13,210 nucleotides of DNA, taken from a virus. Its lineage: Duplodnaviria; Heunggongvirae; Uroviricota; Caudoviricetes. Of the stretch, positions 1 through 6,000 are shown one piece after another; the stretch's first letter is position 1; the number at the start of each line of letters is the position of its first letter. The position numbers are program-made. The DNA is taken from IMG/VR virus record IMGVR_UViG_2671181040_000012; one strand, 5' to 3'.

Positions 1-3000
1 ATGGCACGAAAAACCACTCCACTAACCATCACGGAGATCAAAAATGCACGACCAGGAGAAAAAGAATACACCCTGCAGGATGGCGGAGGATTGTTTCTTC
101 TGGTGAAGCCCTCCGGATCAAAAATCTGGCGCTTTACGTATTACCGACCCACTGACAAAAAACGAACCATCGTTAGTCTTGGTCCGCTGAATGATGTTTC
201 TCTGTCAGAAGCCAGAGAGCGACGAAACGAATACAGGGGACTTATAGCGAAGGGAGTTGACCCACAGGACCACGAACGCCGGAAACGTGAAGCAGAGAGC
301 CGGAAAAAGGGCAACACGTTCGAAAAAGTTGCCTCTGACTGGTACGAGATGAAAAAAGGCCAGAATCTCGCTTACAACACGATTAAGGATATCTGGCGAT
401 CCATGGAAAAATACGTATTCCCGCACATCGGAAAAACGCCAATAGATACCCTCACCGCTCGCCGCTTTGTTGAGATACTCACCCCCATTAAGGCGCGTGG
501 CAACCTGGAAACCCTGAAACGCGTTTTACAGCGCATCAATGAGGTGATGGATTTTGCTGCCAACAGTGGTCTGATTGACATCAACACCGCCGCGAACGTC
601 CGTAAGGCATTCCCTACCCCCACCAAAAAGCACATGCCAACCATCCGACCGGAACAGCTACCGCAGCTAATGCACGATTTATCGGTCGCCAGCATAGAAC
701 GGCAAACCAGATTGCTGATTGAGTGGCAGCTACTGACCGTAGCACGCCCCGCCGAAGCAGCCGCCACACGCTGGGAAGAAATAAACCTCGATGCCGAAAC
801 CTGGACGATTCCAGCCGGACGCATGAAGATGCGCCGTGACCATGTGATCCCCCTTTGTGGTCAGGCTATGGCTGTACTGGAAACCATGAAGCCAATCAGC
901 GCACACAGGGAACACGTTTTTCCCAGCCTTAAAAACCCGATGCTGCCAATGAGCAGCCAGACCGCTAACGCCGCATTGCGCCGGATGGGTTACGCTGGTG
1001 TGCTGGTGTCTCACGGATTACGCGCCATATTCAGCACAGCAGCGAACGAGGAAGGATTCGAACCGGACGTAATCGAGGCCGCGCTCGCACACGTGGACAC
1101 GAACGAGGTAAGGCGAGCATATAACCGAAGTAACTACCTGGAAAAACGTGTAGTACTTATGCGCTGGTGGGGTGAATTTGTGGAAACCGCAGCAACCGGA
1201 GTGACCATAGCCAGTGGTAAAAGGGGTATCCGTGCGGTGTGACTGTACAAAAAACCAGTACAACCAGTGCAAACCATGCTAAACCATCGTATAATCGCCT
1301 ATCTCCTCAACAGACAAGGAAAAACCCGACTCATGAGAAATCGAGATTTATTGAAATGGTCTGGCACGAAAAATCATCCAATGTCTGCGGTGAAGGGCTG
1401 CAACTGGCGTTAATGGCAAATCGTGAATTCTGGTCAACATACGATCCGGAAGACAAATCAACAGCCCCCACAAAACACGAGGTAGTCAGTTTTTTACGCT
1501 CGCGTGGCGCATCGAAAAATCTGGCTGAAAGCATCGACAAGGTGCTGAGGCCCACCAGCCTTAAATGTGGTGGGCGACCTAAGAAGTGGAAACGGTAATC
1601 ACAATAGCGGCCCCTTGCGGTCGCTATTTTTTTGCAAAAAGAAAGCGTAATCAATGAGATAAAAAACAGTGAGTACCGTTTTAAAACGGTGAGTACTGTT
1701 TTTCCCGCCCTGCCCTGTTTTACCGTATTTATCACCGGAATACGCCGGATTAACGAGGTAAAACACGATGGAAGTAATCAGAAAAATTCTTACCCGTCAG
1801 GAAGTAAAAAATATTCTGCGCATCAAGGCAGACAGTTCGCTACAGGACATGATCAACGCCGGAAAATTCCCGAAAGGCTTCAAAATCGGTCTGCGTCGTG
1901 TTGGCTGGTATGAAGATGAAGTGCTGGCCTGGCTGAAAGAGCGCGAGGAAGAAGCGCGCGGAACGGCTGCGTAATGGTGTGAGGCGTAACGCGATGAACA
2001 TAACAAAAAGCGCCCCGTTGCCGGAGCGCCCTTGCGAACAATTAACCTACTGCGCAAAAAATGAATCAGTGCAGTGGGATTATATCAACCGTGTAGCGAA
2101 GCGCCACAATTGCCGGATAACAGGCAAAACAAAGGCCACCTGCTACGGTGGCCATTCGACACAAGCTACACGTTATCCCCAACGCATGAGCATTGCCAAC
2201 AATGCCACATTTGCGGCTGGTGGGCAATGTGATCAGTGTGCTGGCTTGCTGGTGGGCTATTCCTGCTCTTTAACATCGTCATGCCGCGATGTTTTCCAGG
2301 TATGCGATCCCATTTTTGTGCGCCTGTACTCTTTTAAGAACTTCTCAAGGGCAAACGCACATGGCGCAAATCTCTCCTGTTCTTGTTCGCTTACCGCATT
2401 TTTGCGTTGTTTTTTCCTGGATGAGGATAATTTCTTTAATGATTTGTCAGTCATCGTAGATACCTGTAACCCAGTGCGCCACAGTTCACCGCACCACAGC
2501 GCTGGTGATGGTTACTCCTGCTCTTTGGCCTTGCGCCGCTGGCGGCGTTTGATCTCGCCTTCTAATGCTGCTGTTACAAACTGCCCTGTACTTTCGCCTT
2601 CTTCTTTAACCTTATCCATTGCATCAACGATATGGAGTGGGACACGTGCATCTATTCTTTTCGATTTTGCATTTACTGATTTCGTTGCCATCTCTGATTT
2701 CCGATTGGTTTGGTGTCCGACAATGATAGCGATAAAAAAGGTTAATGCAATGCTTGACGTGTCCCACACCATTAAAATAACATGTGTCCGACACTTGATT
2801 TTTATCAGTAATGAAACGACGAAACCCCGCACTGTTGGAGCAGTAACGGGGCTTCTAACCAAACCGTTAACTGGAGTAACGATTATGGCTGTAAGACAGC
2901 ATACCCCACGCCTGGCGCACACACAAACCGCCTTTGTGTGGCGTTTTCTGGCACTGAGTGCCGGAGAATCCCAAATCATCCACGTCACCGCATGGACGGA

Positions 3001-6000
3001 ACGCGAAGCGCGTAACCATTGCCCGTCTGGTTGTGTCGCTGTATTCGCCGCCCGTATTCGTCAGGAGGTGCGCCATGTGCAATAACACCCGTCCGGACGC
3101 AGCCGCCGAAGCAATCAGAACGCTGATGCACGCGCTGATTGATATTTCTGTTATCGCAGACAGGGCACATAAGCACGCCACCAGCGAAACAGAATATGCC
3201 GTGGCTTTCGTTCCTCACTCACTGGCTGTTATGCAATTTAGTGCTGATATGGCGCTGAATGAGGCAGGCAAAATTCTTACCGCAGATATTCAAGGGGCGC
3301 ACCATGCATGATGACCGTTATTTTAAATCAATGAGCCATGCAGAAAATGCGCTGACTAACAGTGAATGCTTGCGGCAAATATTGCTTATCTGGCTTGATG
3401 GTTTAAGTGATGCGCCGGAAGATGAACGTGAATCTAATCTTGCTGGTGCGTTTATTTCATTACTCGATACGGTAATCGTCGAATTAAATAAAGCGATCGA
3501 AATTCACGATAAAAAAATAAACGCGGAATAAAAACCATGAAACAGAAAAATTCTGGCTTTACTGCCAGCGGCCCCGCTCGGCCTGAAATCCGCCCAGGCG
3601 ATATTTTCAAAGATAAATATGGTGGACGAATAACGATAAAAACCGTTGACGATTTTCGCGTGACTTATATCCGCGAAGGTTATGCGCATCCCTGCGTGTC
3701 GTCTCATATGCGTTTTGAGAGTGAATTCACCCTGGTAAGCAAAGCACCACCAGCGAACTTAAGCGACATCGACAGAATCATGCGCGTTACAGGAATGGAA
3801 CGCATTAAGGCAGTACGTGAAATTATTCGTGAACGGGGAAAGGCAAAATGAAACTGGCACCGAACGTAAAACTGTTACCGAAAGATAAAGGCGAGGATGC
3901 AGTGATTTTTGCGGGGGATGACGCATACAGCCATGCAGAGCATTACATGCAGGGCGGAGAAGCCAGAAAGCGCGGCGACAAAATACCACCTGTTTATCTC
4001 GGACGGCGTGACCTGGGTAATCTGGAAAACCTGCGTATTGTGGATGAGGGTCGGTCACGCGCCATCGTCAGACGTGCCGGAAAACTGGATGACAAACTGG
4101 CGCTACAGATTGAAACCCTGCTGGCAGTGGCTGGTGTTAAGGAAGCCTGTTTTTGTGACGAGAACGGCGATTTACTGGAGGACTGGACACCACAGCTTGC
4201 CCGACTGAAAGACGAATACGAGCGCGGGGAAAGTCTGGTGTTGCCCTTAAAGAAAAAAATCACAGAAAGCCAGGGCGATGATGAATTAAAGCCCCGCGTT
4301 GAAAGCCGCGCCGATGGTGTTTTCTGGGTAACGCCCAAAGTGGATAAGCAGTCAGGCGAAATTATCCGGCCTGAAACGTGGTTATGTTCCCCGCTTGAAC
4401 TGCTGGGAACGGGGACAATCGGCAAAGAACATTACCGCGTGATGCGCTGGAAGAAACCCGCAAGCCATGAAGTCATCACAATGGCGGTTCCGTGCGGGGG
4501 CATTGGCGATCGTGACGGCTGGCGGTTGCTGAAAGACCACGGACTCAATGTGACAACCAACGGCAAATACAGGGCTATCCTGGCTGACTGGATGCAGTTA
4601 AGCGGAAGCCATGAGGAATGGCAGTTAAGCACAACAACGGGCTGGCATTTTGGCGCGTACATCATGCCGGACGGTTCGGTCATTGGTGAGTCTGAAAAAC
4701 CGATTCTGTTTACCGGAAAAACTGCCGCTGTTAATGGCTATTCCGTGGCAGGAACGGCGGAGGGCTGGCGCGATACCGTTGCGCGGCTGGCTGGAGGCAA
4801 TCCCTTAATGATGCTGGGTGTGGCGGTATCGCTATCCGCACCATTAATCGGGCTGGTGGGGGCTGACGGCTTCGGGGTACATCTTTTCGAACAGTCCACA
4901 GCAGGGAAAACCACCACACAGAACATCGCATCAAGTTTATGGGGAGAGCCGGACGCACAACGGCTGACCTGGTACGGTACAGCGTTAGGTATCGCCAACG
5001 AGGCAGAGGCACACAACGACGGGCTGTTACCCCTGGATGAAATAGGCCAGGCCGGAAACGCGCGGGAGGTGTCAACGTCTGCTTATACGCTGTTTAACGG
5101 TTCCGGGAAATTACAGGGGGCGAAGGACGGCGGCAACAGGGAGATAAAACACTGGCGAACAGTGGCAATCAGTACCGGAGAAATGGACGTTGAAACATTC
5201 CTCAAAACGGAGGGGATAAAAGTCAAGGCGGGGCAGCTTGTCCGCCTGCTTAACGTGCCGATGGAAAAAGCCACACAATTTCACGAATACAGCACCGGAA
5301 AGGCGCACGCAGACGCGTTAAAAGATGCCTGGACAGAAAATCACGGGGCGGCGGGTCGTGAATGGGTTAAATGGCTGGCAGACCACCAGCAGGAGGCAAA
5401 GGACACGGTAAGGTCATGCCGTGAACGGTGGCGCAACCTGATACCGGAGAGCTACGGCGAGCAGGTACACCGCGTGGGTGAGCGTTTCGCCATACTGGAG
5501 GCCGCACTTGTGCTTTCCTGTCATGTGACTGGCTGGGATGAGCAGGAATGCCGCGATGCCATTCAGCATAATTTTAATGCCTGGGTGAAGGAGTTCGGCA
5601 CGGGCAACAGGGAACACAGGCAGATTATTGAACAGGCAGAGGCTTTTTTAGCGTCGTTCGGATTCAGCAGATACCTTCCGTGGCCCAACACCGACGAGCG
5701 TGATTTACCGATTAAAGAGCTTGCCGGATACAGAAAGGGGAGTATCAGAAACGAAGATGACGAGTTCCGTTTTTACACGTTCCCGCATGTATTTGAGGGT
5801 GAGATAGCACAGGGATTTAATCCGTCTCACTTTGCCCGCGCGTTGAGTGCTGCCGGAATGCTGGAAGCGGGTAACGATCGCCGTTACAAGAAAAAGGCGC
5901 TCGGCAGGATTGGGGGGAAGCAGCATGTTTTTTACGTGCTGATGTTCCAGCCAGAAAGCGAAGAAGATTAATTTTTTCTCGCGTGTAGGGTGAAAATTTT

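Follow-up and report, generated by a model that had tools for sequence, protein, structure and literature searches.

A probable phage-inducible chromosomal island of the EcCICFT073 family, with a Nu1-type small terminase and three cos sites, at proL of Escherichia coli MB06102

A chromosomal island with the gene order of EcCICFT073

The viral record IMGVR_UViG_2671181040_000012 of IMG/VR, a stretch of 13,210 bp that was analyzed over its whole length (the window; all positions refer to it unless stated otherwise), is 100% identical to the chromosome of Escherichia coli MB06102, a strain from Galapagos seawater. It belongs to a genomic island of 14.6 kb that is very probably a phage-inducible chromosomal island (PICI) of the family of EcCICFT073, an experimentally characterized cos-type PICI from E. 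coli (PMC6092414; PMC6739421). This assignment is carried by the gene content of the island, the homologies of its proteins, its attachment sites and the architecture of its replication origin and cos sites. Positions 1-5971 are the integration, regulation and replication half of this 14.6-kb element at the 3' end of the proL gene, and it is this segment that an initial annotation, made from the sequence of the window, had described as PICI-like rather than as a classical P4 satellite.

The limits of the island were set in locus L001, which consists of the window and 15 kb of flanking sequence on each side (window position = L001 position minus 15,000). The left flank holds chromosomal housekeeping genes (yejA-F, bcr, rsuA, radD, rplY, yejK/L/M) and the tRNA-Pro(GGG) gene proL, the right flank is likewise made up of housekeeping genes (yejO, narP, ccm, nap), and the island occupies the interval between yejM/proL and yejO. 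A tRNA gene had been expected just upstream of the window in the initial annotation, and proL in fact ends 209 bp before position 1. Both proL and the integrase gene point in one direction, and int therefore reads away from attL, in line with the initial proposal. The matching direct repeats, which the initial annotation had suggested looking for, were set by comparison with the empty site of E. coli K-12: attL (CTCTCGTGCCGACCAAA) is situated at the 3' end of proL (window -222 to -206), attR (CTCTCGTGGACCAAA) at 14380-14394 (L001 29380-29394), approximately 1.2 kb past the end of the window. The repeat is imperfect and 15-17 nt long, and a 26-nt arm-type repeat, TTTTTAGCTACACGTT(T/A)AGCTATACG, is present just inside both ends of the island. 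The proL fragment at attR is damaged when its sequence is set against that of attL, and proL would be defective if recombination during excision restored the attR copy. Such damage at attR has been reported to be a typical trait of PICIs (PMC10111431). When the whole island was searched against Rfam (E <= 1), the tRNA alone was returned together with a sub-threshold match to STnc470 (18 bits vs a gathering score of 80).

Genes for capsid, portal, protease, connector, tail, holin, lysis and the large terminase subunit (TerL) were not found between attL and attR, neither by Pfam and PHROG scans of all annotated ORFs (open reading frames) nor, for TerL, by tblastn. This inventory bears on the idea that the sequence represents a capsid-forming PICI (cf-PICI) or a part of a complete prophage, to which the presence of a terminase small subunit and of cos could point, as could the binning of related 10-13.7-kb elements as viral genomes in IMG/VR. 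With no structural genes from attL to attR, housekeeping genes on both flanks and an island of only 14.6 kb, the probability of this explanation is close to nil. A larger intact prophage, the context that the initial annotation had named as contradicting its own view, is ruled out by the flanks, where the segment adjoins no structural genes of a prophage. As a separate observation, many of the 10-14-kb 'viral genomes' in IMG/VR (L011-L017, L020 and many of L108-L151) are PICIs of the same family, which carry int, alpA, a gene for a DUF927 protein or a primase, and genes for a single-stranded DNA-binding protein (SSB), PerC and the small terminase subunit (TerS), and no structural genes.

The sequence features that mark PICIs of Gram-negative bacteria (Fillol-Salom 2018) were all found in the probable PICI at proL: a discrete island in the size range of about 8-15 kb, bounded by att sites at a location characteristic of PICIs, with int at its left end, an AlpA regulator, mainly rightward transcription (four genes lie on the minus strand), a pri-rep gene with an origin, the lack of structural genes and the common gene content. 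Four of the five genes that form the PICI core in SatelliteFinder (int, regulator, pri-rep, capsid-morphogenesis gene and terS; PMC10085698) are present. The closest comparison is provided by EcCICFT073 itself, which was located in the CFT073 genome at coordinates that agree with Table S1 of PMC6092414. In tblastn searches 13 of its 20 proteins match proteins of the island, and they do so in collinear order. This shared order runs from int and alpA via a small gene and a YlcI/YnfO gene on the opposite strand, an Icd-like gene, further small genes and a DUF4222 gene to pri-rep, the iteron origin, a hypothetical gene, the genes for SSB and PerC and the packaging module, and it ends with an rdgR-like last gene. 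Both elements are devoid of TerL, tail and lysis genes. They differ in their attachment sites (ycfD-phoQ in EcCICFT073, proL here), and the island exceeds EcCICFT073 by a third cos site and by genes for a ProQ/FinO protein, a second PerC protein and a fimbrial subunit.

The integration site itself is an established one. Six PICIs are listed at yejM in Table S1 of PMC6092414, namely EcCIATCC25922, EcCIED1a.1, EcCI11128, EcCI11368.1, SdCI1012 and SbCISb277; as far as we found in the literature searched, these elements have been catalogued rather than functionally characterized. EcCIATCC25922 shares with the island the proL site, an integrase with 82% identity and the same kind of arm-type repeat at both ends. 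On the other hand, it is smaller (11.3 kb compared with 14.6 kb), has a Pri-Rep of the EcCICFT073 type, capsid-like genes and a cosN of the lambda type, and the DNA-binding domain of its TerS is unrelated.

Replication and the distinction from P4

The predicted replication initiator/helicase of the island (707 aa; 3848-5971, plus strand; Pfam DUF927, E 3.4e-46) is composed of a PICI-type N-terminal domain (approximately residues 1-160) and a DUF927 P-loop helicase. Its N-terminal 164 residues are 41% identical to the Pri-Rep protein of EcCICFT073 and the remainder is unrelated, the helicase part of the latter protein being of the D5_N/DUF5906/Pox_D5 type as opposed to DUF927. Judged by these alignments, the replication proteins of both elements are mosaics with a common N-terminal domain of about 160 residues. 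This agrees with the published statement that Pri-Rep exists in several alleles among the PICIs of E. coli. Structural matches were obtained with the staphylococcal Rep protein deposited as 'Pathogenicity island protein' (PDB 8TCH, E 5e-15) and with the Cch helicase of SCCmec (5DGK).

Immediately 3' of this gene, 28 bp past position 5971, begins a predicted iteron origin (5999-6145, not assigned to a strand), in which inverted sets of TAACCCGCAA iterons surround an AT-rich spacer. Its six repeats comprise two minus-strand copies of TAACCCGCA(A/T) and four plus-strand copies at 21-bp intervals, and the spacer between the two sets measures about 55 bp with a GC content of 27-30%. In the wider locus 16 matches to iterons of the TAACCCGCAA type were counted (3.65 +/- 2 expected), a number that was reached in none of 100 shuffles. 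Position and layout are those given for PICI origins in PMC6092414, where two iteron sets flank an AT-rich region just 3' of pri-rep. The iteron origin of the initial annotation is thus a real feature, albeit one located beyond the segment 1-5971 to which it had been ascribed.

A second cluster of TAACCCGCAA iterons is present at 13887-14044 (L001 28887-29044), approximately 350 bp inside attR. It is built from three minus-strand and three plus-strand repeats, separated by an AT-rich spacer that measures about 77 bp, and the region is 92% conserved in the related island of STEC276. Two iteron clusters combined with one initiator are reminiscent of ori plus crr of P4. It was also considered that the right-hand part of the island, with its second PerC gene and this second cluster, constitutes a second PICI in tandem; however, the genes are not ordered as would be expected of a second unit, and STEC276 preserves the arrangement in full.

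The same general plan is known from the SaPI-type PICIs of Gram-positive cocci (SaPIs), which possess an integrase, a regulator, a Rep helicase and an iteron origin 3' of its gene and are free of structural genes. The Rep protein of the island is detectably homologous to a SaPI Rep of solved structure (PDB 8TCH). SaPIs redirect packaging either by a TerS of their own (SaPI1, SaPIbov1) or by a copied helper cos (SaPIbov5), and both means have parallels on the island. Differences concern control, which is exerted by the Stl repressor in SaPIs as opposed to an AlpA activator here, and the packaging mode, since SaPI TerS pairs with pac/headful phages whereas the TerS of the island is of the lambda Nu1 type and associated with cos.

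The genes on which a relationship with satellite phage P4 could be based are int and alpA. The former encodes a P4-type tyrosine integrase of 413 aa (1-1242, plus strand; Pfam Arm-DNA-bind_3, Phage_int_M and Phage_integrase) whose identity is 33% with P4 Int (404 aa aligned), 82% with the integrase of EcCIATCC25922 and 24% with that of EcCICFT073. The AlpA-family regulator (68 aa; 1768-1974, plus strand; Pfam Phage_AlpA, E 4.5e-8) matches AlpA of EcCICFT073 with 60% over 25 aa and Vis of P4 with 35% over 37 aa. By analogy with EcCICFT073 (PMC6092414) it is presumed to be the activator of the island cycle. Integrase, AlpA and the DUF927 protein had all been recognized in the initial annotation, and domain matches bear out each of them within 1-5971.

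These genes allow for a scenario in which the island is a P4-like satellite in need of a P2-type helper, with Int and AlpA/Vis as a conserved core and hijacking genes that have diverged past recognition. It could be added that small genes of the Icd-like and YlcI type are found in many enterobacterial satellites, that the second iteron cluster near attR resembles the P4 arrangement of ori and crr, and that int, alpA and a primase alone do not allow SatelliteFinder to tell P4-like elements from PICIs of type C (PMC10085698). Integration at the 3' end of a tRNA gene and iteron replication with two clusters are likewise common to P4 and the island. When all 14 annotated P4 proteins were compared by tblastn with the six reading frames of the whole island (E <= 0.01), however, only Int and Vis had relatives there, and no match was obtained for alpha, sid, psu, delta, epsilon, the cI-region open reading frame (ORF), orf106, orf151, gop, beta or cII. 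The lack of sid, psu, delta and the usual alpha primase, put forward in the initial annotation, consequently applies to the entire element. The Psu, Ogr_Delta and Derepression families of Pfam were not matched by any ORF of the island. P4 alpha contains Zn_Ribbon_Prim, Toprim_3, D5_N, DUF5906 and Pox_D5 domains, none of which occurs in the replication protein of the island with its sole DUF927 domain, and a BLASTP comparison of the two proteins gave no significant match. Furthermore, the 19-nt cos of P2 and P4 (GGCGAGGCGGGGAAAGCAC) was not found on the island with up to 4 mismatches, there is no similarity to P4 at the DNA level, and Rfam detected no C4/CI RNA on the whole island. Instead of the P2-type cos, the island carries three cos sites of the lambda family and a Nu1 homologue. 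A P4-like satellite is therefore extremely improbable, and the PICI assignment is retained in the following.

Small terminase, cos sites and the packaging module

The gene terS (9820-10404, plus strand) encodes a full-length TerS of the Nu1 family with 194 aa, which covers positions 1-162 of the 164 positions of Pfam Phage_Nu1 (E 1.3e-69) and gave structural matches to lambda TerS (PDB 6HN7/1J9I, N-terminal structures). It is 69% identical to Nu1 of PhiR5_1, 59% to gp1 of phage 21 and 53% to lambda Nu1, with homology to the two latter proteins over the full length and 70% in the winged helix-turn-helix (wHTH) when compared with phage 21. In contrast to the situation in lambda and phage 21, terS is not followed by a gpA gene; the identity of the C-terminal domain to those of these two phages is only 24-27%, and there is an extension of 13 aa. 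This tail (TTGNVPEKLRQQKGE) is common to the alleles from islands and is lacking in phage Nu1 proteins, and the C-terminal third of island TerS is 22-51% identical to its counterparts in phage Nu1 proteins (best PhiR5_1). An unrelated N-terminal DNA-binding domain (27%) is combined with a C-terminal third of 68-73% identity in some island alleles, among them that of EcCIATCC25922. The EcCIATCC25922 protein as a whole belongs to the same family and is 50% identical, the C-terminal two thirds being shared, and there, too, a cos site lies upstream.

In lambda the C-terminal region of Nu1 binds gpA (PMC9026076). The TerS gene is intact in six related islands, whose alleles encode proteins with 88-92% identity, and the pairwise dN/dS ratio relative to the window copy amounts to 0.22-0.27. 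By this measure terS is under purifying selection, and the intact alleles, the dN/dS ratios and the modular, conserved C-terminus together suggest that TerS is functional. It may be that these PICIs retain one domain devoted to TerL capture and exchange their DNA-binding domains in keeping with their own cosB.

This equipment is not that of EcCICFT073, which uses Rpp, a protein that heterodimerizes with the TerS of the helper (PMC6739421). Rpp-type proteins comprise approximately 144-153 aa and consist of a wHTH and a dimerization domain, without a TerL-binding domain. EcCICFT073 has RppA (144 aa, no TerL-binding domain) along with capsid-protein-E-like and decoration-like genes, and the island possesses the full-length Nu1-type TerS instead. 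RppA found no tblastn match on the island; the sole similarity extends over 11 of 30 residues in the helix-turn-helix of the Nu1 homologue. PICI cosB has been described as being without I1, R2 and R1 and reduced to an equivalent of R3 (PMC9026076). Neither of the two characters of Rpp-type cos PICIs, an Rpp protein and a cosB limited to the R3 equivalent, was found here. DUF1441 proteins, which are encoded in related islands, were considered as Rpp candidates and rejected: they lack a sequence match to RppC, and a separate type of phage has DUF1441 proteins as its small terminase.

Three cos sites are present on the island, all with a conserved cosQ (GGGTCCT..C.G) and cosN. The first, cosA (7958-7999, annotated as 7958-8040, plus strand; cosQ GGGTCCTCCCG, cosN GGGCGGCGGACG), follows the first PerC gene and is of the type found in phages with a DUF1441 terminase. 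It aligns with cos of the 44.9-kb phage contig L018, in which cos is followed by genes for a DUF1441 TerS, a gpA-family TerL (24% to lambda gpA) and a lambda-family portal protein. In related islands an intact DUF1441 gene lies behind cosA. The second site, cosB (9602-9792, plus strand), is located directly 5' of terS and comprises cosQ, cosN (GGGCGGCAGACG), an I2-like segment and R boxes of the phage 21 type, i.e. R3 (GCATGTCGGTACTTCTT, 9683-9699), an inverted R2 (9744-9751) and R1 (TTTCATGTCGG, 9782-9792). The positions of these boxes match the annotated R3, R2 and R1 of phage 21, and the alignment extends to PhiR5_1; the site is accordingly read as a complete cosB of the phage 21 specificity group and not of the lambda type. 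The third site, cosC (10431-10624, minus strand), converges on the 3' end of terS and combines the same cosQ and cosN as cosB with three TCAGATCCnTTCT R boxes. The R3 box of cosC was detected in 48 viral contigs, some 25 of them lambdoid phages with genes for Nu1 (approximately 56% identical) and then gpA (approximately 67% to lambda); one of these lambdoid contigs, L111, carries cosN GGGCGGCAGACG and R boxes of the cosC type. In both cosB and cosC the boxes R3, inverted R2 and R1 are found at phage-like spacing, just as cosQ, an I2-like segment and the R3/R2/R1 spacing are conserved relative to lambda and phage 21. The lambda-type cos with a Nu1 homologue of the initial annotation is hence real in both its parts. 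The location needs correction, as these elements lie at 7958-10624 and outside 1-5971, and so does the type: the cosB beside Nu1 is that of phage 21, cosN is a variant, there are three cos sites and no Rpp is encoded.

terS is bracketed by a perfect 73-bp inverted repeat (9601-9673 and 10553-10625) that contains cosQ, cosN and the I2-like segment. The 1,025-bp segment 9601-10625 has the opposite orientation in the island of STEC276, which is collinear in other respects (91% identity), and the packaging cassette has therefore flipped between strains. The arrangement cos - terS - inverted cos recurs in approximately 15 other island contigs with different TerS alleles, and EcCICFT073 has the same layout of cos and inverted cos around rppA.

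These signals argue strongly for dependence on a lambdoid cos helper. From the sequence and by analogy with EcCICFT073 (PMC6092414), we infer the following course of induction and packaging. A lambdoid helper phage would switch on alpA, and AlpA would activate the rightward operon. Int would then excise the island, and the DUF927 initiator-helicase would fire the iteron origin with the help of the island SSB, giving rise to concatemers. A gpA-type TerL of the helper would cut these at cos and fill helper capsids, probably with trimers, as three units of a 14.6-kb island amount to 43.8 kb and thus roughly to one genome of lambda size. Targeting would most likely be achieved by the island TerS acting on cosB, since its DNA-binding domain suits R boxes of the phage 21 type, and its C-terminal domain, the counterpart of the TerL-binding domain of lambda Nu1, would presumably recruit the gpA-type TerL of the helper. 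For this specific route via TerS and cosB we consider the chances to be evenly balanced. Direct use by matching helper lineages could be open to cosA, with its affinity to DUF1441-terminase phages, and to cosC, which is of a second lambdoid type.

Several points speak against a mobile PICI packaged in this way. At 14.6 kb the island is larger than the PICIs of 8.5-12 kb listed in 2018. Its excision, replication and transfer are presumed by analogy, and no candidate helper was identified in MB06102, where no search for a helper prophage was made. With its DUF1441 gene deleted and a fimbrial gene inserted, this copy may be partly decayed. The 12-nt cosN overhang GGGCGGCGACCT is found in lambda, phage 21, PhiR5_1 and EcCICFT073, whose cosN is identical to that of lambda, and the cosN of the island (GGGCGGC[A/G]GACG) departs from it at overhang positions 8-12, so that lambda itself may not cut the island. 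The phages with a TerS nearest to that of the island have a lambda-type cosN, and L111, the sole Nu1/gpA phage contig with the island cosN, has a TerS C-terminus like that of phage 21. All packaging features taken together are matched by no single known phage.

With regard to cosN, an IMG/VR scan for the variant returned ten contigs, eight of which are 10-13.7-kb islands of the same family and one is phage L018. A further variant, GGGCGGCAGCGG, was seen in phage L164. Overhang positions 8-12 read GACCT, GGACG, AGACG or AGCGG in phages with gpA-family terminases (L018, L111 and L164 compared with lambda, phage 21 and PhiR5_1), with cosQ and positions 1-7 constant. The variants in L018, L111 and L164 therefore imply that positions 8-12 vary naturally among phages of the gpA type. 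A scan of genome contigs with ACGGGGCGGCRGACGCGCRG was discarded, as its 87 matches look like chance, those listed being almost all from Streptomyces and other non-enterobacterial, largely high-GC genomes.

The only serious rival to a mobile PICI is that this copy is partly decayed and may no longer be mobile. In its extreme form the island would be a non-mobile remnant in which cos and Nu1 are leftovers, now without function, from a lambdoid prophage that entered an old island by recombination; both are clearly phage-derived, with 59-70% identity to phage proteins. Signs of decay are the DUF1441 remnant, the fimbrial insertion, approximately 1.25 kb without a recognizable gene (10625-11886) and the differences among relatives, which include insertions and deletions, an insertion sequence and an inversion. 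The DUF1441 remnant (8174-8338, plus strand) became apparent when set against the islands of STEC276 and VTB97432v, in which the gene is intact, and retains only the start (MDRELKN, the first seven codons) and the end (QEIHQGE). Debris of a prophage terminase operon is nevertheless not what is found behind Nu1, as tblastn with three gpA-family TerL proteins against the whole island detected no gpA remnant or pseudogene 3' of it. All related islands examined have an intact TerS, with the low dN/dS ratios given above, its PICI-specific C-terminal domain is conserved across alleles, and the module of cos, terS and inverted cos recurs in dozens of islands of 10-14 kb that carry different TerS alleles and, with rppA, in EcCICFT073. 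Moreover, int, alpA, rep, the origin and both att sites are intact. A decayed remnant is on this evidence improbable, although it ranks well before the P4 and prophage explanations.

Accessory genes and significance of the island

The remaining genes of the left half are small. Between int and alpA a hypothetical protein of 80 aa is annotated in RefSeq (1356-1598, plus strand; no family match). Two genes on the minus strand follow alpA: one for a small hypothetical protein kept in E. coli PICIs (2257-2454; phrog_21027; 55% to the EcCICFT073 protein at the same position) and one for a YlcI/YnfO family protein according to RefSeq (2512-2691; EcCICFT073 counterpart 68% identical). The next genes are on the plus strand and encode an Icd-like protein, annotated as host cell-division inhibitor (2885-3085; NCBIfam phage_ICD_like, E 8e-18; 50% to the EcCICFT073 counterpart), and two small hypothetical proteins (3075-3311 and 3304-3531) that as a pair match phrog_5146 and phrog_2196, the first being 42% identical to an EcCICFT073 protein. 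A DUF4222 protein (3537-3851, plus strand; Pfam DUF4222, E 1.8e-18; 52% to its EcCICFT073 counterpart) is encoded directly 5' of rep, as in EcCICFT073.

To the right of the origin, all on the plus strand, lie genes for a hypothetical protein of 116 aa (6224-6574; RefSeq annotation, phrog_27268), SSB (6571-6993; Pfam SSB; 71% to the SSB of EcCICFT073), a ProQ/FinO-domain protein (7030-7566; Pfam ProQ, E 3e-24) and the first PerC-family regulator (7563-7850; Pfam PerC, E 3.9e-36; 64% to PerC of EcCICFT073). The ProQ/FinO gene, which belongs to an RNA chaperone family, lies between ssb and perC; it is lacking in EcCICFT073 and EcCIATCC25922 and present in most close relatives. The second PerC-family gene (12908-13210, plus strand; Pfam PerC, E 4.5e-23, and annotation) terminates with the last codon of the window, and the two PerC proteins share an identity of only about 41%. 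PerC regulators can affect the expression of virulence genes in E. coli, and PICI-encoded proteins resembling PerC are reported to activate, to repress or to leave unaffected the expression of the enterocyte effacement locus (LEE).

The most conspicuous accessory gene is an orphan gene for a major fimbrial subunit of the F4/K88 family (8463-9275, minus strand; Pfam Fimbrial_K88, E 5.7e-53). DNA matches to it were found in only four of 5426 complete E. coli genomes. It is located just 3' of the DUF1441 remnant in a stretch of low GC content (38-46%), has no usher or chaperone gene nearby and is missing at this place in related islands; a relative of the subunit is encoded on the IMG/VR island contig L122. 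The interval 10625-11886 that follows the terS cassette is free of annotated genes, family matches and Rfam matches and is 84-91% conserved in STEC276. It is succeeded by the homologue of the last EcCICFT073 gene (11887-12171, plus strand; 71% by tblastn; phrog_1561), whose product is, on account of its position, probably the rdgR accessory regulator that is listed in Table S1 of PMC6092414. A hypothetical protein of 100 aa annotated in RefSeq (12491-12793, minus strand) is kept in related islands.

E. coli PICIs, their control by AlpA, their iteron origins, their packaging via cos and the proL/yejM attachment site are already published, and some Gram-negative PICIs have been described to carry terS (PMC6092414). 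A functional treatment of a full-length Nu1-type TerS with a PICI-specific C-terminus, of a triple cos comprising three cosB types or of a terS cassette enclosed by inverted repeats was not found in the searchable literature, and the packaging module is a reasonable experimental lead. Tentatively, and with more doubt than confidence, it may be put forward that the island exemplifies an uncharacterized packaging strategy of E. coli PICIs: a modular Nu1-type TerS with an exchangeable DNA-binding domain and a PICI-specific, gpA-capturing C-terminus would reside in an invertible cassette bounded by 73-bp repeats, and a triple cos with three types of cosB would give access to several unrelated lambdoid helpers.

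The classification of the island corrects a common mislabelling, by which such elements are taken for P4-like satellites or defective prophages, and it adds a well-delimited PICI at proL that is equipped with an orphan F4-type fimbrial gene and two PerC-family regulators. The only cos-type PICI of E. coli dissected so far re-targets the TerS of its helper by means of Rpp, and the island studied here and dozens of its relatives keep a complete Nu1-type TerS and multiple cos sites. If this TerS binds the gpA of the helper directly, it would represent the cos-phage counterpart of the TerS strategy of SaPIs, and the island family would offer a tractable system for learning how the pairing of TerS with TerL and the specificity of cosB determine which phages mobilize which islands.

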